Positions 9,879-25,735 of a stretch of DNA of 32,000 bases are shown one piece after another (position 1 is the stretch's first letter; the number at the start of each line of letters is the position of its first letter). Below the pieces are notes generated by a model. It had not been told where the DNA came from and ran no database searches. It saw only the letters and a list, made by a program, of their open reading frames with translations. A program made the translations under genes and the position numbers. The stretch is from Promethearchaeota archaeon (GTDB taxonomy: Archaea > Asgardarchaeota > Lokiarchaeia > Sigyniarchaeales > SOKP01), in NCBI GenBank assembly GCA_030606485.1, contig JAUWGH010000003.1:180001-212000 (forward strand), written 5' to 3'.

Positions 9879-10355
9879 TTAGATTTTTTCTTCAAAATAT
9901 AGGATATCTTTTAATGTTCCTTCCCTTTTTTCTTTGGGTTTAAATACAGCCTTAACCTTTACACCGCAAAAATCTCTTTTTAAATCTTTAGTTTTAATTA
10001 TCCCCAATAAAGCACCATCTGTTTTATCAATGTCAATCAGAGCAATGATCTTAGGTTCTTCCATTTTTTTTCCATGGGCATTTATCGTCGCAACTGTGAA
10101 AACTCTAACTGTGCCAGTTGCAGGAACCTCTAGCCAATCACTTTCGGAAATTTCCTGGAAACAATCCTCACAATATAATCTTGCGGGGAATAATACTTTT
10201 CCACATTTCTTACATTTTGTTGCAAGGAATGTATCTTTTTCCATCAAGTGTCTAAAGAATCGATCCCCTGCAACACCATTTGTATACATGTAGTCTGCTT
10301 GCATATCTCCACGCCAATGCATGGGGGAAGTTGGATCTGTCTGTTTTTCTAACAT
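9879..10355 (-). CDS. DUF35 Zn-ribbon/OB-fold thiolase partner protein
   Basis: CKKCGKVLFPARLYCEDC zinc ribbon followed by an OB fold ending VKAVFKP..REGTLKDI.YF. Confidence 0.9.
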   Translation of the reverse strand: MLEKQTDPTSPMHWRGDMQADYMYTNGVAGDRFFRHLMEKDTFLATKCKKCGKVLFPARLYCEDCFQEISESDWLEVPATGTVRVFTVATINAHGKKMEEPKIIALIDIDKTDGALLGIIKTKDLKRDFCGVKVKAVFKPKEKREGTLKDILYFEEKI

Positions 10356-10898
10356 TTATTCTTCACCTCCTCTAAAAGGTTTGAAGTATTTTATATCCGT
10401 AATTGACCCTTCTCTTTCGTTTTCTGGCTTCCAAACCGCTTTGACTTTCATACCAATCTTAAGTTCTTCAGGTTTCATCTCTCCAAAATAGTGCATAAAG
10501 CCATGCTTGGGAGATGCTCCGTCAATGGATATAACGCCAATAAGGATTGGTTCTTCAATTCTTCTTGCATCTGCGTCAAGATATGATAAGGAGAAGGTCT
10601 CTACCGTACCCGTATCTTTTAAATATACCCAATCGCTAGTTGGTCCATAGCAATATTCACAAAACATTCTAGGGGGAACTATTACTCTCCTGCATCTATT
10701 ACATTTTATGCCAATAATTTTCCCTGCTTTTAGTTCCTGCAAGAATCTACTCATTGCAGGGCCTAAACTCCAACTATACTGAACTTCTGGCTCCCACCAA
10801 GTGTATGTAATTTTTCGCTCATATATATCTTTATCATGTACGTGCGTTCCTGGGGCATATTTCGGATATGATTCTTTTTGTTCTTTCTTTTCAGTCAT
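10356..10898 (-). CDS. DUF35 Zn-ribbon/OB-fold thiolase partner protein
   Basis: CNRCRRVIVPPRMFCEYC plus OB fold. Start moved from the track's GTG (10907, inside the GGAGGTGA RBS) to ATG 10898. Confidence 0.9.
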   Translation of the reverse strand: MTEKKEQKESYPKYAPGTHVHDKDIYERKITYTWWEPEVQYSWSLGPAMSRFLQELKAGKIIGIKCNRCRRVIVPPRMFCEYCYGPTSDWVYLKDTGTVETFSLSYLDADARRIEEPILIGVISIDGASPKHGFMHYFGEMKPEELKIGMKVKAVWKPENEREGSITDIKYFKPFRGGEE

Positions 10899-10903
10899 TT
10901 CTT

Positions 10904-12064
10904 TCACCTCCTAAGCACAATAACGGTTGCCATTTGCATAATATCTCCCCACGCTTGGCCTACACCAACTCTTGGGTCTCCTGGTATCTGTCTTTTACCT
11001 GCTTTACCTGCTAATTGCCAATATACTTCGCAAACTTTTTGTCCCATTGTAGCTGCAATTGGGTTACCCACACCTAATAAACCTCCGGATGGACATATAG
11101 GAAGGTCGCCATCTCTTTGAGTAACGCCTTCCCGCGTTAGAATGGGAGCTTCACCCTTTTTACATAACAAAAGGCCTTCCATATGATGTAGTTCTTTGTA
11201 ATCAAATGGATCGTAAGGCTCTGCAAAGTCTATATCTTTTGGTGGGTTTGTAATTCCCGCCATTTTATAGGCCATTTTTGCAGCTGTTGCTACATAACGT
11301 GGGAAGCATAAGTCTCGATTAGTCCACATAGTACTGTCAATACCCCAACCCACACCATCTACCCAGATTGGGTCATCTGTAAACTGATGTACTTTATCTT
11401 TGCTACAATAGATTAATGCCGATGCTCCATCACTTGGAGGGCTAACATCTAATCTCTGCACAGGCCAAGCCATAACTTCAGAATTCAAAACATCATCAAT
11501 AGTGATGTTTGGATCTGCTAACTGGGCACATGGATGACCAACGGCATTTCTTTTGTTTTTCACAGCCACTCGTGCTATGTCTTCTTTTTTTATGTTGTAG
11601 ACCGTCATATATCTGTTCATTTCCATTGCAAATAACCAAATCAGATTGGGGTTGAGCGGTCTATCAATAATAGGGTCCCAAATATGTCTAAACGCTGTCT
11701 GAGGATGTGGATAACAAGAACCCATTTTTTCTTCGCATACTACCATTACAATATCAGCAACGCCTGATGCTACATGCCACCATCCTGCAATAGGAGCAAA
11801 AACACCTGTTCCCCCACCATTAAACACTCTAACATATGGCTTTCCTGCCGCAGCTGCACCATCTATTAGATTCTCTCCCTTCATATGAATGCCATCGAAA
11901 GCGTCAGGAGCACTTCCCATGACTACCATATCAAGATCTGACTTTTGAATGCCAGCTTCTTCTAAAGCCATTTTTGCTGCTAAAAAAGAAAGTTCCTTTC
12001 CAGTTTCCTTTAACCGTCTGCGGAACAAAGTCATCCCAGCTCCAATAACTGCTACATCTTTCAT
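10904..12064 (-). CDS. Thiolase-fold protein lacking the nucleophilic Cys (Ltp3-like)
   Basis: VAVIGAGMT; RVFNGGGTG where canonical thiolases have CxSG; EPYDPF; SGGLLGVGNP. Confidence 0.88.
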   Translation of the reverse strand: MKDVAVIGAGMTLFRRRLKETGKELSFLAAKMALEEAGIQKSDLDMVVMGSAPDAFDGIHMKGENLIDGAAAAGKPYVRVFNGGGTGVFAPIAGWWHVASGVADIVMVVCEEKMGSCYPHPQTAFRHIWDPIIDRPLNPNLIWLFAMEMNRYMTVYNIKKEDIARVAVKNKRNAVGHPCAQLADPNITIDDVLNSEVMAWPVQRLDVSPPSDGASALIYCSKDKVHQFTDDPIWVDGVGWGIDSTMWTNRDLCFPRYVATAAKMAYKMAGITNPPKDIDFAEPYDPFDYKELHHMEGLLLCKKGEAPILTREGVTQRDGDLPICPSGGLLGVGNPIAATMGQKVCEVYWQLAGKAGKRQIPGDPRVGVGQAWGDIMQMATVIVLRR

Positions 12065-12078
12065 TTTTTTTCCACCTC

Positions 12079-13323
12079 CTATCCCCTCTTAAATATTGCT
12101 ACTGCCCCACTTCCCGAGGGTATTCCACGCCAAGCTTGCGCAATACCAATTTCTGCACCTGGAACTTGTCTCTTTCCTGCGTATCCTCGCAACTGAGTAA
12201 CAATTTCTAAAGACTTTTGCAATCCTGTGGCTTCAAGGCTATTTCCCACTCCTAAAGAACCGCCAGAAGTGTTTGTTGGAAAGGACCCCTTTACATCCAG
12301 TACCCCTTCTTCAAGCATCTGAGCTGCTTCCCCTGGTCTTGCCAGTCCCATTGCTTCTAGATGTTGAAGTTCCTTATAGGAAAATCTATCATCTACTTCT
12401 GCGATGTCTATCTCTTTTCTTGGTTGTAGTATCCCTGCCATTTTATAAGCCATCTTTGCTGCTTTGGTTGCATAGGCAGCATCCATGCCCCTTGTTGAAA
12501 GCCATGGCGTTTCAGAGCTCCAACCAAATCCTGATAGGTAAATAAGTTCTACACCCAAATTCTTTGCTGTTTTCTCATCAGCAAGAACAAAACTCACTGC
12601 CCCATCGACATTGGGGCTAATATCCAATCTTTTTATGGGTTTGAAGAGATATTCAGAACTCATTACATCATCAACACTTATTTTTGCTTCATAATCTGCA
12701 TATGGGTTATTAAAAGCGTTTTTCTTGTTTTTTACTACAACTGATGCGCACTGTTCTTCTGTGGTGTTTGTTTTTCTTAGATAATGCTGCATCTCTAACC
12801 CTGCTAAAAAGTAAGGGTGAATTCGCTCTTTTTCATCTGTACTACCTACAAGAGGTTTTGGGCGCTCTTTGGAGTATGAAGGACTACCCGCATAATTTGG
12901 CCTTTCAACAGGCCCAGAAATTGGCCTTTCAAAAATTGGATCATAGGCAAACAGTACAATGTCTCCGTACGTAAGCATATCCGAAGCTTTACTATGAGCT
13001 TCTACTGCTACTACATCTACTATACCAGTCTTTATTTGCATATAAGCATTTCCTAATCCATATATTCCATCACCACAAACCGTACAACAAGGTCTCAATA
13101 CCGCTCCAATTTGATCGGGCACAAATTCATCGAAAATACTAAATCCTTCCCAATAATCTTCAGCACATGTTATAAAACTGTCTATATCTTTTCTAGGATC
13201 AACTCCGGCATCTACATATGATTTCTGACAAGCTTCATACATGATTTCTTTCCATTGCATATCTGGAGTCATGGAATTGAAATCTGTATGGCCAATTCCA
13301 ATAACACATACTTTCCTTGACAT
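12079..13323 (-). CDS. Thiolase-fold protein lacking canonical catalytic residues (Ltp4-like)
   Basis: VCVIGIGHT, DYWEG, DGAVSFVLA, EVDDRFSY, SGGSLGVGNS. Start placed at ATG 13323 after AGGGTGGTGA; the track's 13335 GTG lies in the RBS. Confidence 0.88.
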   Translation of the reverse strand: MSRKVCVIGIGHTDFNSMTPDMQWKEIMYEACQKSYVDAGVDPRKDIDSFITCAEDYWEGFSIFDEFVPDQIGAVLRPCCTVCGDGIYGLGNAYMQIKTGIVDVVAVEAHSKASDMLTYGDIVLFAYDPIFERPISGPVERPNYAGSPSYSKERPKPLVGSTDEKERIHPYFLAGLEMQHYLRKTNTTEEQCASVVVKNKKNAFNNPYADYEAKISVDDVMSSEYLFKPIKRLDISPNVDGAVSFVLADEKTAKNLGVELIYLSGFGWSSETPWLSTRGMDAAYATKAAKMAYKMAGILQPRKEIDIAEVDDRFSYKELQHLEAMGLARPGEAAQMLEEGVLDVKGSFPTNTSGGSLGVGNSLEATGLQKSLEIVTQLRGYAGKRQVPGAEIGIAQAWRGIPSGSGAVAIFKRG

Positions 13324-15373: not shown

Positions 15374-16366
15374 GTGAATGATTTGGAACATAACGTTGAA
15401 AACAAAACTGAAGATAAGAAAAGATATCTTAGTATAGATGTATTTAAAGGATTGACCATTGTATTAATGGTTTTTGTAAATTCAGTCCAATTATTTGAAA
15501 GTGTTCCTGCTTGGACTAAACACGCAGGAGATTATGGACTTACCTATGCAGATCTAATTGCTCCATTCTTTGTTTTCATGATGGCACTCAATTTTAAAAC
15601 ATCATTTCAGCGTCGATTAGAACAAAATGGAAGGTTAAAAGCATATATTCACTTTATTCGGAGATATTTAATACTAATTGGAGTTGGACTTCTAATGAGC
15701 ATTAATGAAGATATGGGAGTTATTTATTTTAGATGGGGCACACTTCAAGTGCTTGGTATATCGGGTCTTATATTATTGCCATTAATCGAATTAAAACCAG
15801 AGATAAGGATAATTTTTGCATGTGTAGGACTGGTTTTATATCAAATTCTAATAGGAACCGATGTGAGTGAAATAATATATGATGGAGTTGAAGGTGGAAT
15901 TATTGGCTCACTTTCTTGGGGTGTAATGATGATTTTATCTTCTGTTATAGCAGAAGGATTAGTTAAAAGAAAAACTAATATATATTTTCTGTTAGGGGGA
16001 ATAATTTGCACAATTTTAGGTATTAGCACACATTTTATCTGGGGAATTAGTAGGCCTTATGTATCTAGTCCATATATTTTAATAAGCGTTGGAATTGCTT
16101 CTTTATTATTTTATGGGATCTATTATATCTTCGAAATTTGGGGTAGGGACTATAAATTTTCACAAAAAGATAATTTTTTAAGTGTTATGGGGAAAAACGC
16201 CTTTATATTGTTTCTTTTGCATTGGCTTTTATTTATTATTACATATTTAATACTTCCATCAGACACTCACTTCTTAATTGTGTTTATTTGTGCTTTTATA
16301 AATATTTTTATCATTTGGATAATTGCTTTTATTATGAATCGAGAAAAGATATTCATTATAATATGA
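15374..16366 (+). CDS. Heparan-alpha-glucosaminide N-acetyltransferase (HGSNAT)-like membrane acyltransferase
   Basis: RYLSIDVFKGLTIVLMVFVN, WTKHA..GLTYADLIAPFFVF, RWGTLQVLG, SSPYIL; multiple TM segments; GTG start. Confidence 0.8.
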   Translation: MNDLEHNVENKTEDKKRYLSIDVFKGLTIVLMVFVNSVQLFESVPAWTKHAGDYGLTYADLIAPFFVFMMALNFKTSFQRRLEQNGRLKAYIHFIRRYLILIGVGLLMSINEDMGVIYFRWGTLQVLGISGLILLPLIELKPEIRIIFACVGLVLYQILIGTDVSEIIYDGVEGGIIGSLSWGVMMILSSVIAEGLVKRKTNIYFLLGGIICTILGISTHFIWGISRPYVSSPYILISVGIASLLFYGIYYIFEIWGRDYKFSQKDNFLSVMGKNAFILFLLHWLLFIITYLILPSDTHFLIVFICAFINIFIIWIIAFIMNREKIFIII

Positions 16367-16502
16367 TTGCTGTATAAGTTTTTAATTTTCCTTTCTCTAA
16401 AGAGTTATACTTACTAAATTTATTTGAAAAATAATAAAAAATAACAATTATTAATTCTTTTACTGAAAAGAATTATGTCAATATTTAATTGAGGTTAAAA
16501 AA

Positions 16503-17735
16503 TTGGAAAAAGTAGCAATAATTGGTATAGGAATTACTCCTTTTAAAGCACGTTATTTAGATAAAACCTATTTTGAGTTAGCTTATGATGCAACTAAATT
16601 AGCTCTCGAAGATGCAAATAAACAAGGCGCTGAAATTACACATAAAGATTTACAATCTACCGTATATGGGATTTATAATGAGTTATTTGAACGTCAATTT
16701 ATGCCAGATATATTTATTAATAGTTATATAGGGATGAACAATAAGCCAGGAACACGAATTGCTTCAGGTGGCGCAACTGGAGGATATACTGTGAGAATGG
16801 CTTACGCAGAAGTTGCTTCTGGTTTGTCAGATTTGTGCTTATGCTTAGGTGTGGAAAAGTGCAACGACTGTTATGATATACAAACCGGAACGACCACCCC
16901 CGAAGTTCTGAATGCGATTGCTTATTCAGCTGACATGACATATGAGTACCCAATGGGAATGATGGCAGCGTCCTCGTATGTATCTATGGTTAATGCCCAT
17001 TTCGAAGAGTTTGGTAGTCCAACGGAAGAGCAGATGGCACTTGTCAGTGTAAAAAATCACGGGAACGCAATAAATAATCCAAAAGCTCAATCACCAATGA
17101 AAATAACCGTAGAAGATGTAATGAATTCGAGAATTATTTGTTATCCGTTTAAAATGTTAGATTGCTGTTTATATTCAGAAGCATCCGCGGCATTAATTTT
17201 AGCCAACGAAGAAAAAGTTAAGGAATTGAAGATCGATAATCCAATCTGGATTACTGGTGTAGCTGCCGCAAATACAGATTGTTTTATTGGAAACAGAGAG
17301 GATATGGGAAGACTTTATTCAAATATATACGCAGCAAAAGCAGCCTATAAAATGGCAGGATTAGATTATAATAAAATCAAGGAACAAATAGATGTTGCAG
17401 AATTACATGACGCATTCTCTGGGCAAGAAGTAATTAGCTATGAAGAGCTAGGATTTGTTCCTTTCGGCGAAGGTGGTAAATGGATTGAAGAAGGAGGTCC
17501 TATGATAGATGGAGAATTACCTTGTTGTCCCTGTGGAGGATTGATTGGATGTGGACATGCTGTTGGGGCAACTGGAATAATGTCAACTGGCGAAGCGGCG
17601 CTTCAATTAAGAGGTGATGCTGGAAAACATCAAATAATAATTGAAAAGGGACGGGGTTTAGCGCATTCAATCGGAGGTCCTGGTGCAGCATATGCAGCTA
17701 TAATAATAATGGAAAATCAGGAGGCGAAAAAATAA
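16503..17735 (+). CDS. SCP2/SCPx-type thiolase-fold protein (nucleophilic Cys position replaced)
   Basis: VAIIGIGITPF, IASGGATG, VKNHGNAINNP, ELHDAF, GGLIGCGHAVGATG; TTG start after GAGG. Confidence 0.9.
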   Translation: MEKVAIIGIGITPFKARYLDKTYFELAYDATKLALEDANKQGAEITHKDLQSTVYGIYNELFERQFMPDIFINSYIGMNNKPGTRIASGGATGGYTVRMAYAEVASGLSDLCLCLGVEKCNDCYDIQTGTTTPEVLNAIAYSADMTYEYPMGMMAASSYVSMVNAHFEEFGSPTEEQMALVSVKNHGNAINNPKAQSPMKITVEDVMNSRIICYPFKMLDCCLYSEASAALILANEEKVKELKIDNPIWITGVAAANTDCFIGNREDMGRLYSNIYAAKAAYKMAGLDYNKIKEQIDVAELHDAFSGQEVISYEELGFVPFGEGGKWIEEGGPMIDGELPCCPCGGLIGCGHAVGATGIMSTGEAALQLRGDAGKHQIIIEKGRGLAHSIGGPGAAYAAIIIMENQEAKK

Positions 17736-17736
17736 A

Positions 17737-18228
17737 ATGGAATTTCAAGCACATCAAATAAAAGATATACTTAAAATTGATTATAGGTATACTATGGGAG
17801 GACAATCTAAGTTTTTCATAGAGTTGATGAATAATAAAAAACTATTAGGCACAAAATGTACTAAATGCGGAAAGATTTGGATGCCTCCAAGAATAAATTG
17901 CTCGGAATGCTACGAACCAGCGGAGTGGGTCGAGATGAAACAAACCGGAACAATAGAAGTTAGCACCATTGTATGGTATACTACATCTGCTTTTATTAAG
18001 GCGATTCCCTACGGAATTGGTTTTATTAGATTAGATGGTGCGGATACAGCGATGCTTCAAGGAATATTTTCCGAGAATTTAATTCCATCTAAAGTAAAGA
18101 AAGGAAAAAAAGTAAGAGCAGTATTTCAAAAAGAAAGGGAAGGAAAAATGACAGATTTTTTCTTTGTGCCAGAAGATGAATATGAATCTTGGATAATAAA
18201 ACCAGAATATGAGGGGGGTTCAGAATGA
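17737..18228 (+). CDS. DUF35 Zn-ribbon/OB-fold thiolase partner protein
   Basis: CTKCGKIWMPPRINCSEC plus OB fold; starts 1 nt after the thiolase stop. Confidence 0.9.
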   Translation: MEFQAHQIKDILKIDYRYTMGGQSKFFIELMNNKKLLGTKCTKCGKIWMPPRINCSECYEPAEWVEMKQTGTIEVSTIVWYTTSAFIKAIPYGIGFIRLDGADTAMLQGIFSENLIPSKVKKGKKVRAVFQKEREGKMTDFFFVPEDEYESWIIKPEYEGGSE

Positions 18229-18590
18229 ACGAAGCTAGAATAGAATTTGAAAAAATAATTGATTTAATAAATAAAACACCAAAATCAAAACAAGTTTTCG
18301 AATCAGAGGATTGGAGATATACTATTCAATTTAAATTGGATGGAGAAGATGATCCTTTTTTTCTCGTTGTCAAGGATGGAATTGGAAAAGTTATTGTAGG
18401 TGAAGATATTAATGCGGACATGTTAATCACTGGTGATAACAATAGTATTATAAAAACCAGTCAAGGGAAAGGTGATTTTACTCACGGAATTAGTCGTGAA
18501 GAGATTTCTGTTGAAAAAGGAAAAGTATTTGAATTAATGCGGATAAGTAGAGCAATCGGAGTTGCATTGAAAATACAAAAAGGGAAATAG
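18225..18590 (+). CDS. SCP2 sterol/lipid-binding domain protein
   Basis: TIQFKLDGE..PFFLVVKDG..KVIVGE..NADMLITGD pattern of SCP2 domains; ATGA overlap with the DUF35 gene. Confidence 0.75.
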   Translation: MNEARIEFEKIIDLINKTPKSKQVFESEDWRYTIQFKLDGEDDPFFLVVKDGIGKVIVGEDINADMLITGDNNSIIKTSQGKGDFTHGISREEISVEKGKVFELMRISRAIGVALKIQKGK

Positions 18591-18661
18591 AATTTATATT
18601 TCAATCAAATTATCTTTTTTTATTTTAATAATGTTCAATCATAAATTTTTAAAATTATTGT

Positions 18662-18700
18662 CATATCCTGTATAAATTGTGTTACCTCAATTTCAATTAT
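18662..18700 (-). pseudogene. Possible third, highly eroded remnant of the AACS 3' end
   Basis: Reads IIEIEVTQFIQDM versus AACS KVEIAVTKIIHGM; 27/39 nt identical by hand alignment. Confidence 0.35.
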
Positions 18701-18730
18701 TTATCTTTAATGATGTTTAAAATAACATAA

Positions 18731-18759
18731 TTATAAATATGTGTATGTGTATGTGTATA
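18731..18759 (+). promoter_or_regulatory. TATA-like box followed by (ATGTGT)3 direct repeat, putative promoter/operator of the vapBC pair
   Basis: TTATAAAT at 18731-18738, then ATGTGT x3 at 18739-18756, ATG at 18763. Confidence 0.45.
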
Positions 18760-18762
18760 AAT

Positions 18763-19002
18763 ATGACATCAAAAAATATTAGTATCACTAAAGAAGTGTA
18801 TAATAAATTAAAAAAAATTAAGGCTGAAAATGAAAGCTTTTCAGAACTATTTTTAAGATTACTTAAAGTTCAAAAATATAATATCGAAAAATCTTTTGGA
18901 GTATGGAAACTTTCAGAAAAAGAAATGGAAGATATTTGGGGAAATATTAATAATCGTGCTGGAAGACGTTGGAAAAAGTTAGATATTGGTGAAATAAAAT
19001 GA
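18763..19002 (+). CDS. vapB: Archaeal VapB-type antitoxin
   Basis: MTSKNISITKEVYNKLKKIKAENESFSELFLRLL; ATGA overlap with the PIN gene. Start moved to 18763 (the track's MCMCMC start is the repeat). Confidence 0.85.
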   Translation: MTSKNISITKEVYNKLKKIKAENESFSELFLRLLKVQKYNIEKSFGVWKLSEKEMEDIWGNINNRAGRRWKKLDIGEIK

Positions 19003-19406
19003 TTGTTCTTGATACTTCAGCTTGCATTGATTATCTAGATGGTAATGAGAAGTTAAAGGAAATTATTTTTGTACAGGAATCAATTATTCATATTACAGCA
19101 ATCACTGTTTATGAAATTAATATTGGATTAGAAAGAACAAAAAGGAAAATTTCTGAGGAGAGATATAAATATCTTTATAGAACATGGATGGAATTTATAA
19201 GTAGAATGGAAATTTTTCCGTTAGGGGTCAAAGAAGCTGAAAAGGCTGCGAAAATCTACGATATCTTGGAATCCAAAGGTCAAATAATTGATGATAACGA
19301 TATTTTAATAGCAGGTATTATGCTCACAAACGGGATAAAAAAAATAATTACGAAAAACGTAAAACATTTTGAAAGAATTGAAGGAATTGAGATTATTAAA
19401 TATTAA
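18999..19406 (+). CDS. vapC: VapC PIN-domain toxin
   Basis: IVLDTS, ITVYE, DNDILIAG, ITKNVKHF acidic PIN motifs. Confidence 0.92.
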   Translation: MIVLDTSACIDYLDGNEKLKEIIFVQESIIHITAITVYEINIGLERTKRKISEERYKYLYRTWMEFISRMEIFPLGVKEAEKAAKIYDILESKGQIIDDNDILIAGIMLTNGIKKIITKNVKHFERIEGIEIIKY

Positions 19407-19449
19407 TATTAAAAAAAAAGATAAATTAAATCTATTTAAAAATTTAAAA

Positions 19450-19578
19450 TTATTTAAGTTCCTCCTTGATTTTCTCGTAAAAATCGAGAGAAAATGGATT
19501 TCTAAGAGCGCCTCGATTTGCAACTGCTATTTCATGAATGATTTAAGTATAAACAATTTCAACTTTTTTTTTTTGAAA
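19450..19578 (-). pseudogene. Remnant 1 of the acetoacetyl-CoA synthetase 3' end
   Basis: Reads FQKKKVEIVYT*IIHEIAVANRGALRNPFSLDFYEKIKEELK* versus FSNKKVEIAVTKIIHGMEVANRSALRNPTSLDFYEKVKDELK*; 92/120 nt identical over 19450-19569; internal TAA at 19545-19543. Confidence 0.9.
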
Positions 19579-19623
19579 CTTATTAAAAAAGATTTATATT
19601 AATCTTTAAATTAAGAATAGACT

Positions 19624-20457
19624 ATGGAATTTGAAAATTTAATTTATGAAGAAAAGGATCAAGTGGCTTGGATTATACTTAATCGACCTGAAATCTTAAA
19701 TGCATTAAGCATGAAACTTTCTGATGAGTTAGTTGCTGCTATAGAAATTGTAAGGCAATCTACAAAACTTAAATTTTTAGTTATTAAAGGAGCAGGTAAC
19801 AATTTCAGTGTTGGAGATGACATTAAGGAAATGATTAAATGGGGCGATGCTAATGATATAACACGACGAGCGAGATATTATCAAAATATGGCTAATCAGC
19901 TTGAAGAGTTAGATAAAATCACAATTGCCGCTGTAGATGGATATGCTGTAGGTGGTGGCTTAGAAATTACTATGGTATGTGATTTTGTAATTGCCACTGA
20001 GCGCTCAAAATGGGGTATGCCAGAAGTGGATGTCGGAATAACTCCCGGATGGGGTGGTACCACAAGATTAGCTCGACTCATAGGTCGAAGGAGAGCTAAA
20101 GAAATTAATCTTATTGGTGCACTTCATTCCGGAAAAAAGGCGGTGGAATGGAATTTGTGGAACCGGGTTGTACCAAACGATCATCTTGATGATGAGGTGG
20201 AACAGTTATTGGAGGTACTTAAATCGAAAAATCAGCAAGGATTACGTCAATTAAAATTTATAATTAATCGTGGAGTAGAATGTGATTTGTATACTGCTCA
20301 GGGTTTTGAAGTTTTATCTGCTGGTTTAACTGGCGCTGTTAGTGGGATGTGGAAAATAAAAGATGCTGATCAGGGTAAGGGTATAATCGGCTTCACTAAT
20401 AAGGCTGGTCTATGGCAAACAAGAAGACGAATGGCAAAAGACTTTTGGGTTGATTAA
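19624..20457 (+). CDS. Enoyl-CoA hydratase/isomerase (crotonase) family protein
   Basis: LNRPEILNAL, FSVGDDI, GYAVGGGLE, GMPEVDVGITPGWGGT; both crotonase Glu positions present. Confidence 0.92.
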   Translation: MEFENLIYEEKDQVAWIILNRPEILNALSMKLSDELVAAIEIVRQSTKLKFLVIKGAGNNFSVGDDIKEMIKWGDANDITRRARYYQNMANQLEELDKITIAAVDGYAVGGGLEITMVCDFVIATERSKWGMPEVDVGITPGWGGTTRLARLIGRRRAKEINLIGALHSGKKAVEWNLWNRVVPNDHLDDEVEQLLEVLKSKNQQGLRQLKFIINRGVECDLYTAQGFEVLSAGLTGAVSGMWKIKDADQGKGIIGFTNKAGLWQTRRRMAKDFWVD

Positions 20458-20575
20458 AAGATTTTAATCTTAGATTATTTCCCTAAATGTTATTAGTTTT
20501 TTTATAAATTTAATTTAGATAGAGATATGATTTTTAAAAAATTAATAAAAAAAAATATTTTTTTTGAAGATATGA

Positions 20576-21418
20576 CTAAATTTTTAAAATTCGGTTTTCT
20601 TTTAGCCAATCTATTCCAAAGTCTACTATAGCTCGCAGTGATATTAATCGAGCTTCTGCCAAACCAATTTTACCAGGGCTATAATTAATTTTAGACTCAA
20701 AATCCTTTCCAAATTGCTTAAAATCATCACTATTATGATCCAAACCTTCCCATTCTACCCATCGTCTCTGAGTATTCACAGTCATTGCACATCCATTCGA
20801 AATAAATTTTTTTCCAGGGAAATCACTTCGATATTCTGCAAGATGCAATGAAGAGTTATTCTCATGGGTAACACCCACTAATAATATTTGTCCATCAAGA
20901 TCATAAAGACGGGAAATAGGAGAATCTTCCCCCAAATCTGCTGTTAATTTATGATTTTCAGTAATAAATTTTGCATATTTTCCCCAAGCAGCGAATGATG
21001 ATATGGGATGATTACTCCGTAAGACATTAGACCAATTTCTAAAAGTCTCTGCAATAACTCCCATTACTCTTGTAGGTGTTATTTTCGGCTTGAAGGCGGG
21101 CATCTCTTGTCTAATTGTATTCCACCAACTTTTAGGTACAGGAGGATTTTCCCATCGAGACGGGTCTGAGTTATCGCTAGTAAATGTTGGCATTACTAAT
21201 GTACCCTCTGAGGTTAGAACTTGCATTAGAGCTTTAATTACTGATACTGGTCCTCCAACAGTCCAACCTATCTTACTTAGTGAACTATGCAGTATTATTA
21301 TAGATCCATGCTCAACACCGAGTGTTTTAAAATCACGTTTTAATGAAGTTATAGTGTTAGGATATTTTGTTATTTTAACAACATCGCCTTCAGAGATCTT
21401 TTTCATTTCAATTTCCAT
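20576..21418 (-). CDS. AAC(3)/YokD family N-acetyltransferase
   Basis: LHSSLSKIGWTVGG, GTLVMPTFT, RSNHPISSFAAWG, LLVGVTHENNSSLHLAE. Confidence 0.9.
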   Translation of the reverse strand: MEIEMKKISEGDVVKITKYPNTITSLKRDFKTLGVEHGSIIILHSSLSKIGWTVGGPVSVIKALMQVLTSEGTLVMPTFTSDNSDPSRWENPPVPKSWWNTIRQEMPAFKPKITPTRVMGVIAETFRNWSNVLRSNHPISSFAAWGKYAKFITENHKLTADLGEDSPISRLYDLDGQILLVGVTHENNSSLHLAEYRSDFPGKKFISNGCAMTVNTQRRWVEWEGLDHNSDDFKQFGKDFESKINYSPGKIGLAEARLISLRAIVDFGIDWLKENRILKI

Positions 21419-21751
21419 AATATATTAAATAACTAATTTAGTTAATTACTTTTTTCTTATAGCAATAGCTTATAGAGAAATACCTTTAACCTTAAATCAA
21501 TATAGAAATAGATTTTTCTATTAAAATTATTGTTATAAAAAACTTTATAGACAAATTACACTCACACGACAAAAACCACCGACTAATAAAATTTAAGAAA
21601 GTTATCAACAGATCAATTTTCTATAGACTTAAATCTATTGGAATTTAAAAAAAATTTTTTATAGTTATTTTTAAGGAAATACTATTAAATATATCATATA
21701 ATATTTAGAATCCGTAGGCATAAAAGATGAGAGAAGAAAAGGTGGATTATT

Positions 21752-22330
21752 TTGGGTCTATTTGATACAATAATGTTTCCAAAACCAATTGGATGTAAAA
21801 AGTGCGGAAAACCTCACAAAAGTACACAAACGAAGCAATTTGAAAATTTGATGGTCACTTATTCAATAGGGGATATGGTCCCCGGAAATGTTATGAGTGG
21901 AGTTATAAAAGAAACTATTTTCTGCGACCATGGGGATATTGAAAACAAAGAAAATTATTCGTTCGATCAACCAATTTTTTTGGTAATATGGCACAATATT
22001 CTAACGGATATAGTAGAAAATTTAGAGGAAGCAGAAAATAAATTATCTAAATTTTCTCTGGGAGACCTATATATTTTATACAGGAATCTATACTTAGAAA
22101 AGATCAATTATCAAGTAAAATACGAAAGATTTAAGGCGCTAACACGAATATTTTTCGAGTATTTGGAGTTACCTCCAGAGAAACAAGAAAAAATTAGAAA
22201 AGGACAAGATAACACATTAGATAATATTCGATATTTGCATATAATTGAACATCTTGATAAAAAAAAACCGATAGAAGAAATTATTAAAAATCTAGATGGT
22301 CAAAAATTTACAGAAAAGCTTATTTTTTAA
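21752..22330 (+). CDS. Hypothetical protein with N-terminal CxxC (GLFDT..CKKCG..QTK)
   Basis: 192-aa ORF with protein-like composition, GGTGG upstream of the TTG; CKKC and later FCDH could bind Zn. Confidence 0.7.
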   Translation: MGLFDTIMFPKPIGCKKCGKPHKSTQTKQFENLMVTYSIGDMVPGNVMSGVIKETIFCDHGDIENKENYSFDQPIFLVIWHNILTDIVENLEEAENKLSKFSLGDLYILYRNLYLEKINYQVKYERFKALTRIFFEYLELPPEKQEKIRKGQDNTLDNIRYLHIIEHLDKKKPIEEIIKNLDGQKFTEKLIF

Positions 22331-22522
22331 AAAAAATCTACATCCGAAATAATTAAAAATCTAATCTTTAATATGTAATGATATGCTTTCCACATTTAAA
22401 ATTTTTCTAAAAACATTTATCTCCATCAGATTTAAAAGACAACATTATTATATTGTATGAAAAGAACTTTAAATTAGAATTAAAAAAAAAATAAGAAGTA
22501 AAAAATATTGAGAAATACTTCT

Positions 22523-22677
22523 TTATTTAAGCTTTTTTTTAATATTTTCATAGAAGGTAAATGATTCGGGGGGTTTTAAACACCTCTATTTGCCACAACC
22601 ATGTCATATATGATTTTTATAAAAGCAATCTTAACCTTTTTATTACTGAACGTATAAGGAATGCCATCGGGAGGAGT
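22523..22677 (-). pseudogene. Remnant 2 of the acetoacetyl-CoA synthetase 3' end
   Basis: Reads TPPDGIPYTFSNKKVKIAFIKIIYDMVVANRGV, 1-nt deletion near 22579, then LKPPESFTFYENIKKKLK*; AACS reads APPDGIPYTFSNKKVEIAVTKIIHGMEVANRSALRNPTSLDFYEKVKDELK*; 69/99 nt identical over 22579-22677. Confidence 0.9.
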
Positions 22678-22764
22678 CTATTTTTAAAAAAAAATACTAT
22701 TATCTTAGAAAATCCATATACTTTTCTGAAAAAAAATAAATATTCTGAAAATTATATATAATTT

Positions 22765-23025
22765 ATGACTACTCAAGATAAAACAATTGTTGGAAAAAAA
22801 GGAGAAATTTTACCAAAAAAACCATTACGGGATGCTTCAGGCATTAAGCCCGGAGATGAGGTATTAATTGAAGCCCATCAGGGTGAATTAATTATAAAAA
22901 AGATTTATTCTGTCGAAGAAGCATTAGCTATGCCCACGATTGCGACGGGTACTCCTGAAAGCATTGAAAGAGATATTGAAGAGGAAAGAGAAATGCAGGA
23001 GAAATTAACTAATGAAGAACATTAA
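22765..23025 (+). CDS. AbrB/MazE/SpoVT-family antitoxin
   Basis: VGKKGEILPKKPLRDASGIKPGDEVLIEA..GELIIKK; acidic C-terminus; overlaps the PIN gene. Confidence 0.85.
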   Translation: MTTQDKTIVGKKGEILPKKPLRDASGIKPGDEVLIEAHQGELIIKKIYSVEEALAMPTIATGTPESIERDIEEEREMQEKLTNEEH

Positions 23026-23512
23026 TTTAGTTATCCTCGATACAACATATGTTTTACCACTTTTTGGTATTAAAATGGATCTTTCTCCAGATTTTAAAGA
23101 AAAAATAAAAATACTGTGGAAAAATGGATTAAAGGGATATGAAATATATCTCCCCTCAACTTGTCTTATAGAAACTATTTTTAAACTACTTAATGAATAT
23201 AAGAAGAAGGAAGATTTTAGCATTTTAAAAAGATATCAATTAATTCTCCCAACAGTTCTAAATTCTCCTATTAAAATATTCAATCCCGAATTAAATCCAA
23301 AAGCCAGTTTAATAGCTTCAATCATAAGGCATTCTGGTCATCTTGATTTTATGGATTGTTGGATCGCTGGAACAGCAGCGGCTCTTAACGGGATCCTTTT
23401 AACAGAAGATAATGAGTTAGAAAAAGTCCTTAATGGTATTCCTGAAACTAAATCTATAATAGTTTGGTCATGGAATACTTTGGTAACAAAAATATTTAAA
23501 AAGAAAAAATAA
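23012..23512 (+). CDS. PIN-domain (VapC-like) toxin
   Basis: VILDTTY, CLIE, DFMDCWIAGTA, LLTED. Confidence 0.85.
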   Translation: MKNINLVILDTTYVLPLFGIKMDLSPDFKEKIKILWKNGLKGYEIYLPSTCLIETIFKLLNEYKKKEDFSILKRYQLILPTVLNSPIKIFNPELNPKASLIASIIRHSGHLDFMDCWIAGTAAALNGILLTEDNELEKVLNGIPETKSIIVWSWNTLVTKIFKKKK

Positions 23513-23542
23513 AATAAAATAAAAAAAGATTAATTTAAAGGT

Positions 23543-25528
23543 TTATTTAAGCTCATCTTTTACTTTTTCGTAGAAATCTAAAGATGTAGGGTTCCTAAGA
23601 GCGCTACGATTCGCGACTTCCATTCCATGAATGATTTTTGTAACAGCAATTTCAACTTTCTTATTGGAAAAGGTATAAGGTATTCCATCTGGGGGTGCTT
23701 CTAGAATGAGTTTAGGAACATGTCTTGGGGAAGTTTTTTCTCGTAAAGTTTTCCTTATCTTATCTTTTAACTCGTCAGTTAATTCATAACCTTCGTTTAA
23801 TAGGACAAACATTATAATACGAATATCTCCCTCCCATTTCTGCCCTATCACAAGAGTATCTGAAATTTCAGTTAGTTGTTCTATCACATTATAGATTTCG
23901 GCAGTACCAATACGGACACCACTAGGTTTTAATACTGCATCTGATCTACCCCAAAATGTAATGCCGCCAGTATCGCTGTGAATTACTATGTAGTCGCCAT
24001 GCCTCCATACATTTTTCCCAATATCCTTAAAGTGGTCAAAATATGCCGATTTATATTTTGTCATATTATCATCATCACCCCAGAAATATATAGGCATTGA
24101 AGGCGCAGGTGCTTCACATACGAGTTCAGCCTGCTCATCAAGGACTGGTTCTGCATTATCGTTATAAGATTTAATTTTCATTGCTAACGCAGGACCTTGT
24201 AATTCACCGGAATAGACAGGAAGAATTGGGATAGCACCAGCAAAGCAGCCATTGATATCCGTTCCACCACTTATTGAGTTAAAATATAGGTCTTTCTTGA
24301 TCTCCTTATAGACATATTCAAATCCTTCAGGTGAGAGTGTGGATGCAGTTTGGGATATTTCTCTTAATGTACTCAAATCGTATTTCTCAGCTGGTTTAGC
24401 GTCAACACCCATTAGATAATGAATGTAGGAAGCACTTGTACCAAAAACTGAAATTTTATGCTTTTCCATGAGTTCAAACATTCTAAGGGGATCCGGATAA
24501 AGGGGATTACCATCATAAAGGAAGATTGTTGCACCTACCGTTAACGAGCTTATCAGCCAATTCCACATCATCCATGAAGGCGCAGTGATATAGTTAATTA
24601 CATCGTTTCGTTTTAGATCTGTCGAGAGGATAAGTTCCTTTAAATGATTAATGAGTACTCCACCTGCTGATTGTACCATACATTTTGGCTTACCAGTTGT
24701 TCCCGAGGAAAATACAACATAAACGGGGTGGTCGAAAGGCAGTTGTTCGAATTGTATTTCTGGTTTATCCTCTTTAGAGATAAAATCATCCCAATGGACC
24801 GCATTAGGAAAACTACTAATATCAGGTTTGCCATCAGAGATATATGAAACAACAATGACCTTCTCTATTGAAGGTATAACTTCAACCACTTTTTTAGCAT
24901 TAGATATTATTTTAAAAATTTTATCTCTATAATAGTATCCATCAACTGTAAAAAGCACTTTAGGTTCAATTTGACCAAATCGATCAATTACAGCACTAGG
25001 TTGTAATTCAGCACCACAAGAAGCCCAAATTGCGCCAATACTAGTCGCAGCGAGCATAGCAATCGCGGTTTCAATCAAATTTGGAATATATGATACGACT
25101 CTATCTCCCACCTTAACTCCTATTTCACGTAGTGATTTCGCTAAACGAGCAACAACTTTATTTAACTCAGCATAAGTCATTTTCCTTGATACTTTTGTTT
25201 CACCTTGAAAAACAAACGCTAATTGCTTATCTTTAAATTTCAACATATTTTCAGCAAAATTTAATTTCGCTCCGGGAAACCATTTTGTTCCTGGATATAC
25301 ACTTAAGTCCTCAACTACCTTTTTATATGGTTGAGATGCTATTATTCCTCCAAACTTCCACATCGCATCCCAAAAATCTTCTATTTTTTCGACACTCCAG
25401 TTATAAAGCTCTTTCCCGGTAGAAATGTTTAGATTATATTTTTTATTAATAAATTCGATAAATCGAGTAGCTTCTGCATTTTTTATCCAATTCTCTGAGG
25501 GTTCCCATAATTTTTTTCGATCTGTTAT
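23543..25528 (-). CDS. Acetoacetyl-CoA synthetase (acetoacetate-CoA ligase, AACS)
   Basis: WFPGAKLNFAEN, FSSGTTGKPKC, SISGGTD, GRSDAVLKPSGVRIGTAEIY, SNKKVE. The frame stays open and homologous for 55 codons upstream of the track's ATG (LWEPS..RF..FIN..Y.L..LYNWSVEK.EDFW); probable start is ATA at 25528. Confidence 0.92.
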   Translation of the reverse strand: MTDRKKLWEPSENWIKNAEATRFIEFINKKYNLNISTGKELYNWSVEKIEDFWDAMWKFGGIIASQPYKKVVEDLSVYPGTKWFPGAKLNFAENMLKFKDKQLAFVFQGETKVSRKMTYAELNKVVARLAKSLREIGVKVGDRVVSYIPNLIETAIAMLAATSIGAIWASCGAELQPSAVIDRFGQIEPKVLFTVDGYYYRDKIFKIISNAKKVVEVIPSIEKVIVVSYISDGKPDISSFPNAVHWDDFISKEDKPEIQFEQLPFDHPVYVVFSSGTTGKPKCMVQSAGGVLINHLKELILSTDLKRNDVINYITAPSWMMWNWLISSLTVGATIFLYDGNPLYPDPLRMFELMEKHKISVFGTSASYIHYLMGVDAKPAEKYDLSTLREISQTASTLSPEGFEYVYKEIKKDLYFNSISGGTDINGCFAGAIPILPVYSGELQGPALAMKIKSYNDNAEPVLDEQAELVCEAPAPSMPIYFWGDDDNMTKYKSAYFDHFKDIGKNVWRHGDYIVIHSDTGGITFWGRSDAVLKPSGVRIGTAEIYNVIEQLTEISDTLVIGQKWEGDIRIIMFVLLNEGYELTDELKDKIRKTLREKTSPRHVPKLILEAPPDGIPYTFSNKKVEIAVTKIIHGMEVANRSALRNPTSLDFYEKVKDELK

Positions 25529-25735
25529 TATTAACGCCTCTTATTTGTTTATTTTATTTTAAAAATTTTTATTTAAATAATAATTGAGTAATAAAATAAA
25601 AGATAATTTTTGAAATTTATTTAAATTTAGATTTTTTTAGGGTTAATTAAAAATATTCAAAATATTTATTTTCAAAAATATCTTTATTAAATTGATTTTA
25701 AAATCTAAAAATATGTAAATAAATGGTGTTTTTAA

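Follow-up and report, generated by a model that had tools for sequence, protein, structure and literature searches.

How do truncated copies of the 3′ end of a conserved metabolic gene come to lie one behind another downstream of the intact gene, with unrelated small genes between them? The question is raised by the 32,000-nt stretch of contig JAUWGH010000003.1 analysed here (the window), part of the genome of an Asgard archaeon (G000) whose related assemblies are labelled Promethearchaeota; the metagenomes that contain the stretch are from cold seeps and marine sediment. The gene is a 606-aa open reading frame (ORF) that encodes acetoacetate-CoA ligase (AACS; TIGR01217, 735 bits with a cut-off of 521), and downstream of its intact end lie two 5′-truncated, same-strand copies of its C-terminal coding region, remnant 2 and, farther away, remnant 1. 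A first-pass annotation had read this arrangement as serial accretion, in which incoming DNA with an end of its own displaced the resident 3′ end. Comparison with related genomes bears this part of its reading out: both remnants are most likely former ligase 3′ ends, left as scars by repeated insertions, each of which supplied a replacement end together with cargo.

Displaced ligase ends in the window and in related genomes

Searching the window with the ligase protein (tblastn) recovered remnant 1 at 19578–19453 on the minus strand (aa 565–606, 71% identity, one TAA, E 1e-12) and remnant 2 at 22677–22528 on the same strand (aa 556–605, 56% identity, E 3e-10). An nhmmer profile built from 18 live ligase ends placed them at 19574–19444 (E 2e-22) and 22679–22499 (E 2e-26). 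The live segment that is copied comprises the final ~240 nt of the gene and ~25 nt 3′ of the stop, and the ligase C-terminus is conserved (83% mean column identity). The live gene and both remnants terminate in CTT AAA TAA followed by T-rich sequence, and the live end and the remnant copies are 56–77% alike without an exact shared core. Remnant 2 contains a single frameshift near GGTGTTTAAAACCCC. Differences between remnant 1 and the live end number 7, 6 and 19 at codon positions 1, 2 and 3, compared with ~6, 3 and 24 when live ends are compared with each other. The two copies, their common terminus, the nonsense codon in one and frameshift in the other, the wobble bias of remnant 1 and the order of the genes around them (AbrB/PIN, the hypothetical 192-aa gene, AAC(3), enoyl-CoA hydratase, VapBC) had all been described in the first-pass annotation, and all were seen again.

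A third remnant proposed at 18662–18700 did not hold up equally well. The 27/39 identity claimed for it is correct, and the segment is the fourth-best ungapped match in the window, behind the live end and the two remnants; yet nhmmer --max returned nothing there at E ≤ 10, and its local alignment score of 16 was reached by 49 of 1,000 shuffles and by 31 of 862 natural 148-nt windows (p ~0.03–0.05). We therefore treat it as marginal and do not count it.

Remnant 2 has 80.5% identity to the live end of G001, one of two sister genomes of the same genus (G001 and G002), versus 67% to its own live end. It is chimeric, with last codons and downstream flank resembling the live tail of G002 and an upstream part closest to G001. 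Remnant 1, equally near its own live end (76%), is found in G002 too, with the identical nonsense codon, and is absent from G001.

The arrangement recurs beyond the genus. In a close-relative survey of 41 related genomes, ligase orthologues were present in 19, 7 of which have co-oriented end remnants, one or two each, behind the gene. A family survey of 121 genomes found the ligase end in 90, about 27 of which also have extra 5′-truncated partial copies; on the live gene's contig such copies are without exception downstream and co-oriented. Between live end and remnant the relatives carry 0.1–3 kb of cargo (rarely 5–9 kb), mostly toxin–antitoxin pairs (ParE, PIN_2, DUF3368/UPF0175), with a cold-shock protein, an eIF-1A paralogue, a methyltransferase and dehydrogenases among the remainder. 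Variable cargo bounded by ligase-end copies is what the first-pass annotation had named as support for its reading.

The sister genomes form a nested series in which one genome's live end is another's remnant. In G002 the order is live end, AAC(3), hydratase, remnant 1; in G000 it is live end, PIN/AbrB, remnant 2, hypothetical gene, AAC(3), hydratase, remnant 1, VapBC. G001 is a deletion derivative that keeps a truncated remnant 2 and just ~50 nt of the PIN 3′ end, the AbrB/PIN pair thus having been deleted there. Contig C299 of genome G003 (2R3_4) has one more gene than G000 and then a remnant identical at 164 of 165 nt to window 23501–23665, which is the live end of G000. This remnant continues into a G000-type PIN flank at 96% identity, and the live ligase gene of the same contig is only 78% identical to that of G000. 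Between the sisters, identity in 150-nt windows is 60–76% over the last ~400 nt of the live gene and 85–97% over most of the rest. By these alignments, ligase ends are exchanged between lineages.

Metagenome contigs from independent studies confirmed the array formed by remnants 1 and 2; one of them, 3845 nt long and from another study, joins 18500–21640 to 22477–22817. They also revealed that an 836-nt block between remnant 2 and the AAC(3) gene is a presence/absence polymorphism within populations: the joint that marks its absence, 21640>22477 (21645>22483 in the fourth), was found in contigs of four runs from four studies, and runs X2 and X4 hold both forms, with and without the block. At the borders of blocks in general, the metagenome contigs continue in many alternative ways; no excised circle appeared among the joints, a form that contigs could not show in any case.

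That the copies arose by local tandem duplication and decay, or through faulty assembly, are alternatives that the first-pass annotation had itself raised, and we consider both barely credible. Duplication would suit G009, a relative in which both remnants are closest to their own live end (85–88%). We reject it for the window because remnant 2 is nearer to the G001 end than to its own and the G003 remnant is the G000 end; moreover, the cargo between the window copies is single-copy in the genome and not a duplicated flank. An artefact is at odds with the presence of the array in independent assemblies and in metagenomes.

Extending tblastn from the window, where it returned the two remnants, to the whole genome brought up one more copy that had earlier been missed: an orphan ligase end at C5:12783–13058 (locus L001; aa 532–606, 76% nt identity) with no ligase gene nearby. 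This copy is nearest to live alleles of another genus and lies between a HEPN gene (itself preceded by an unassigned 192-aa ORF) and a wHTH gene, in a defence-type neighbourhood with Schlafen/AlbA2, RiboL-PSP HEPN and DUF3800 genes. In none of the relatives that were fetched do its neighbour genes follow the ligase.

LAGLIDADG endonucleases at gene ends

In G003, in G096 (LW40_87) and on two DZ3M.111 contigs, an intact, convergent ORF of 308–369 aa lies no more than ~45 nt behind the stop codon of the live ligase gene and is followed by a remnant. Members of this ligase-linked group share 67–68% identity and carry the motifs LGWLFAEG and LGFYDGDG with the acidic residues kept; the extra gene of G003:C299 belongs here, its 308-aa product giving a weak PF14528 (LAGLIDADG_3) match just over the cut-off. 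Decayed copies are found at this position in G083 (E 3e-12) and in G051 (E 1e-5), and weak traces were seen in G016 and G020. An AlphaFold model of the protein has a pLDDT of 90 and gave 56 PDB matches at E ≤ 1e-3; the 50 that were listed are all LAGLIDADG enzymes, and the top ones are monomeric homing endonucleases (I-SceI, I-DmoI, I-Tsp061I and PI-PfuI). The two motifs and the modelled αββαββα double-domain fold thus mark the ORF in the relatives, and a homologue in G000 itself (C10:874834–876114), as a predicted LAGLIDADG homing endonuclease. With acidic motif residues kept and a fold that matches active enzymes, it may cleave host alleles that are free of the element. The family is present in 71 of the 121 family genomes and is found almost only in Asgard assemblies.

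Neither the window nor four endonuclease loci (in G003, in G096, on one DZ3M.111 contig and at the gene described below) matched a group I or group II intron, or any other Rfam family, at gathering score. Because no Rfam intron model matches these four loci, we regard their endonuclease copies as free-standing.

Two further arrangements were seen at the ligase gene of relatives. In G014, which belongs to another genus, a decayed copy of the ligase-linked endonuclease lies immediately upstream of the ligase gene. In G115, a different, 637-aa LAGLIDADG_3 protein is encoded directly after the live ligase end (L076:586–2499), followed by genes for an AAA_15/DUF3696 ATPase and a DUF6602 protein, with the remnant 8.7 kb away; a second endonuclease lineage may use the ligase-end site there.

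The endonuclease of G000, 426 aa long and 41% identical to the ligase-linked type, is convergent to the gene for phosphoglucomutase (PGM) and separates it from a displaced PGM end. The corresponding site is clean and empty in G001 and G003. The insert, 1648 nt long, is made up of a foreign tail, the endonuclease gene and the 5′ portion of the remnant, also foreign; in its 3′ portion the remnant is native, as is the flank. We could not describe this insert as a clean single crossover, the switch points lying ~45 nt apart with two native allele types involved. An endonuclease between a live and a displaced end is found at the ligase gene in G003, G096 and DZ3M.111 and at PGM in G000, and not in the window. 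That the displaced end is native and the live end foreign is clear for G003:C299 and for the PGM locus.

Of 30 endonuclease loci, 7 are flanked by direct coding repeats; in a second sample, of full-length loci, the count was 9 of 47. Among random ORFs of similar size it was 7 of 219, and among matches confined to the endonuclease domain, which are probably inteins, 1 of 27. Other repeat-flanked hosts are an SNF2 helicase (in two genera), a Zn-dependent dehydrogenase and a HAD hydrolase; with a D12 methyltransferase host, the duplication is N-terminal.

The ligase locus and its surroundings

The features are collected in Table 1. The first cargo block consists of an AbrB/MazE-like antitoxin gene (22765–23025), whose PF04014 match is under its cut-off, and a PIN toxin gene (23012–23512, PF01850); in G009 a homologous pair comes after a remnant. 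The 836-nt block is bordered by an imperfect ~18-nt direct repeat (TTTTTTTTAAATTCTAAT) and holds a gene on the plus strand (21752–22330) for a 192-aa protein with a CxxC motif, which matched no Pfam or NCBIfam family; the Atlas clusters that it matched are all unnamed. The AAC(3) protein has 96% aa identity in G002, and G001 lacks the gene. The hydratase is 96–98% identical in G001 and G002 and 87% in G014; it is possibly an old neighbour and not cargo, because it also adjoins AACS in G014. At the VapBC position G001 and G002 have other genes. The distal flank beyond comprises a 330-aa gene and genes for a thiolase, a DUF35/OB protein and an SCP2 protein (the last three by Pfam).

Table 1 Features of the ligase locus (window coordinates) and of other displaced gene ends in G000 (contig:coordinates)
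Feature	Position	Strand	Basis or remark
AACS live gene	23543–25363	−	606-aa ORF; orthologues 73–89% aa identity in 19 relatives
Live 3′ end, segment copied in remnants	23517–23781	−	nhmmer match, profile columns 2–266
Cargo block 1, AbrB/PIN pair, convergent with AACS	22765–23512	+	Pfam
Remnant 2, 5′-truncated AACS end, one frameshift	22499–22679	−	tblastn, nhmmer
Polymorphic block with hypothetical gene	21641–22476		836 nt; absent in G002
Aminoglycoside 3-N-acetyltransferase family gene, AAC(3)	20576–21418	−	PF02522, E 3e-89
Enoyl-CoA hydratase gene	19624–20457	+	PF00378
Remnant 1, 5′-truncated AACS end, one TAA	19444–19578	−	tblastn, nhmmer
VapB antitoxin and VapC PIN toxin, cargo	18739–19406	+	PF02697, PF01850
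Candidate third remnant, marginal, not confirmed	18662–18700	−	27/39 nt identity
Conserved distal flank	15374–18590	+	94% nt synteny with G001 and G002
PGM element in G000 (L093)	C10:874402–877870		PGM gene, convergent 426-aa endonuclease, displaced PGM end aa 527–573
Scars without endonuclease	C1:7693–10389, C1:279741–287322, C10:437664–440100, others		Recent displaced ends in G000

Some features of the live gene and of the window stand apart from the displaced ends. When the ligase ORF is read from its first start codon, the family-model alignment begins only at position ~55. Opposite window 25363–25672, G001:C46 and G002:C80 hold ~2.2 kb extra, from the ligase start up to the next gene in synteny, that G000 lacks. 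Window 10000–13000 has a G+C content of 40–42% versus ~30% elsewhere and differs from the matching stretch of G001 and G002; no Rfam family matched there.

The ligase genes of G003:C299, G009, G014, G015, G016 and G020 share an exact 30-nt insert with an in-frame TAA (for example L035:796–825, L039:796–825 and L006:1367–1396). Its equivalent site in the window is at ~24560, between ...TGGATG and ATGTGG..., and G000 does not have it; in the four genomes that were pattern-searched it is single-copy. The insert contains a 9-bp hairpin with three compensatory pairs and can be drawn by hand as a bulge–helix–bulge (central helix of 3 bp plus A·G), in which cuts after the second base of each 3-nt bulge would excise exactly 30 nt. 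On its sequence it is a candidate mini-intron in an archaeal mRNA, with translational bypass (ATG...ATG) or a split gene as alternatives.

Competing explanations and known systems

We assign a probability of roughly 0.5 to the explanation that the remnants result from endonuclease-seeded replacement of gene ends together with homologous recombination. Incoming DNA with its own ligase end and extra genes would have recombined into the last ~200 nt of the gene, so that the ligase gene stayed intact while the old end was pushed downstream and decayed. The seed would be a free-standing, two-motif LAGLIDADG lineage homing to the ligase 3′ end: its product would cleave alleles without the endonuclease, and repair templated by an occupied allele would copy the endonuclease, the linked foreign end and everything between that end and the old remnant. 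Live end and remnant would then serve as direct repeats through which homologous recombination could move, swap or delete the intervening DNA, with addictive cargo such as toxin–antitoxin pairs tending to persist. At the G000 ligase locus the endonuclease would have been lost and the scars and cargo left. A search of the window for an endonuclease gene or relic (hmmsearch --max, six-frame, E ≤ 1) found none; that such an enzyme cuts the ligase end and caused both events recorded as remnants 1 and 2 we therefore infer only by analogy with the relatives.

The empty window is the first of several observations that weigh against endonuclease seeding. Remnants linked to an endonuclease start at four different positions, and the 5′ boundaries of remnants, placed in register with live alleles, fall at no fewer than eight positions over ~110 nt; a single insertion site is not evident, and either erosion or separate events have to be invoked. 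No flank repeat lies within 1.5–3 kb of about 80% of the free-standing endonuclease loci, and ~3% of random genes do have one. Most cargo beside the live ends of relatives consists of toxin–antitoxin pairs, not endonucleases. Remnant 1 lies beyond the possibly ancestral hydratase, an order that fits simple serial insertion less well, and the orphan ligase end on C5 has no explanation.

Scars are also found at genes other than the ligase, some of them with no endonuclease in sight. At least 10 other G000 genes are followed, 0.2–7 kb downstream, by a C-terminal remnant that extends to the last residue; they include those for Ldh_2, a GH3 hydrolase, a glycosyltransferase and phosphoglucomutase. 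The Ldh_2 scar has a 105-aa remnant (93%) behind the gene for a hydrophobic, membrane-like protein, and at the GH3 gene two ABC transporter genes and one PadR gene precede an 88-aa remnant (92%); both scars weigh against endonuclease seeding. An 85-aa glycosyltransferase remnant lies behind an FkbM methyltransferase gene. We considered whether the 360-aa ORF in the Ldh_2 scar might be an endonuclease and rejected it, as it matches no Pfam family and has long hydrophobic stretches that look membrane-like by eye. Fragments genome-wide comprise C-terminal pieces downstream of 18 genes and upstream of 10, and N-terminal pieces downstream of 11 and upstream of 11; this is only a mild excess, debris of tandem paralogues makes up many of the cases, and we make no claim of a directional bias.

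These scars, and the N-terminal fragments with them, would be expected if the ligase end were a recombination hotspot that needs no endonuclease, the endonuclease and toxin–antitoxin genes being merely selfish cargo that survives between repeats. DNA from related strains would enter through homology in the conserved ligase gene and be closed by an illegitimate distal joint (homology-facilitated illegitimate recombination), or a circle with a piece of the ligase end would enter by a Campbell-type single crossover, and a remnant would be the unreplaced part of the resident end. Such a route accords with the variable junctions, with the chimeric structure of remnant 2 and of the PGM remnant, with the lack of an endonuclease relic in the window and with divergent tracts of the live gene that begin ~250 nt upstream of the remnant boundary, as an anchor crossover deep in the gene would leave them; the same mechanism has been proposed for the displacement arrays of Rhs and type VI secretion system (T6SS) loci (PMC5361080). 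It leaves unexplained why one endonuclease lineage sits exactly behind the ligase stop in at least four assemblies of different genera, why flank repeats are enriched 6- to 7-fold at endonuclease loci and why the ligase is hit in ~30% of genomes. We regard an endonuclease-free hotspot as a serious alternative, somewhat less probable than endonuclease seeding.

The first-pass annotation had favoured an integron-like array that used the end of the gene for attachment, served by a recombinase acting in trans if not by homologous recombination. A site-specific recombinase, in trans or since lost, with a defined site in the ligase 3′ end would account for cassette-sized blocks (0.1–3 kb) rich in toxin–antitoxin genes, for the extension of all remnants past the stop into the T-rich tail, and for the polymorphic hypothetical-gene block with its flanking repeat. 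No integrase or recombinase was found in the window, as had been noted, nor among the cargo ORFs scanned in the window and relatives, and the cargo blocks are integrase-free; the whole genome contains two tyrosine-recombinase (PF00589) matches, one of which is broken; both lie on contig C1, neither near the ligase locus, which speaks against an integrase in trans. The shared crossover point that had been anticipated is likewise missing: the junctions are spread as described above, independent junction sequences have no common core, and cargo genes are oriented both ways. A scan of viral contigs that used aligned ligase C-termini as query brought up no viral or plasmid carrier of a ligase end, and scars occur at many unrelated genes. 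With no IntI-type recombinase beside the array, no conserved recombination site with a fixed crossover, and neither an own integrase nor identical att cores as in genomic islands, the integron analogy fails every defining feature tested, and we think a recombinase-based origin highly improbable. Homologous recombination, the other route that had been allowed for, is part of the explanation that we prefer.

Endonuclease-seeded end replacement also has precedents, and the earlier statement that no such system was known proves too strong. In the mobile ORF elements (mORFs) of fungal mitochondria (atp6 of Allomyces macrogynus; atp6, atp9, cox2 and nad3 of Glomus), a LAGLIDADG or GIY-YIG ORF travels with a foreign C-terminal region of the host gene and the native C-terminus is displaced downstream, the native remnant resembling close relatives and the inserted end diverging mostly at synonymous sites (PMC3630166). 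The ligase locus of G003:C299 and the PGM locus of G000 share with them an endonuclease joined by a foreign gene end and a displaced native end. They differ in that the setting here is archaeal chromosomes, with nuclear-type metabolic and housekeeping genes as hosts; in that the endonuclease is a separate, usually convergent gene rather than an in-frame fusion; and in that several rounds have built arrays, with additional cargo (toxin–antitoxin, acetyltransferase) between end and remnant, whereas the window itself lacks an endonuclease. Our literature search found no report of mORF-like elements in archaeal chromosomes or in Asgard archaea.

At Rhs, CdiA and T6SS loci, new 3′ ends arrive serially and older ends shift downstream (Jackson 2009 via PMC5361080; Kirchberger 2017, PMC5361080), by a proposed route that joins a homologous anchor to an illegitimate distal joint without an integrase (PMC5361080). 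The resulting rows of orphaned 3′ fragments, interspersed with small genes, are alike; there, however, the replaced end is a variable toxin domain that comes with its immunity gene, and toxin diversity is under selection, whereas here the exchanged part is a conserved enzyme C-terminus whose replacement is functionally neutral. The host, an AACS equivalog, has no variable toxic C-terminal domain with a paired immunity gene. In the intronless homing of T-even phages, a free-standing endonuclease whose gene lies between conserved genes cleaves its conserved neighbour in endonuclease-free genomes and spreads by repair, with co-conversion of the flanks. A free-standing endonuclease gene adjoining a conserved gene is common to both cases, but the phage systems have no duplicated gene end and reside in phage genomes, not cellular chromosomes. 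Integrons and islands at gene ends (e14 at icd, SCCmec at rlmH) resemble the locus in their ordered cargo at one gene end, oldest farthest, in the frequency of toxin–antitoxin cassettes and in incoming DNA that restores the gene end; the locus differs from them in having no integrase and no att core, variable junctions and mixed cargo orientation. The phenomenon is best classed as a variant of an established type of homing element, of which the window preserves the fossil scars.

A more far-reaching version, which we put forward tentatively and think unlikely, is that Asgard archaea possess a recombinase-free cassette system, in which duplicated ends made by the endonuclease would act as portable homology arms and host recombination would shuttle toxin–antitoxin, defence and resistance-type genes between genomes, by pop-out and pop-in of circles or by repair after endonuclease cuts. 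If true, this would be a functional analogue of integrons assembled from a homing endonuclease and the host's recombination machinery. Endonuclease-seeded end replacement, the explanation that we prefer, would in itself extend a principle of fungal mitochondrial mobile elements to archaeal chromosomes and give a concrete, testable route by which Asgard chromosomes acquire small accessory genes at conserved loci with neither integrases nor transposases. For annotation, such scars explain why short orphan ORFs and seeming pseudogenes turn up behind genes that are intact, and the displaced ends can serve as markers of the order of past insertions and of the donor lineages.

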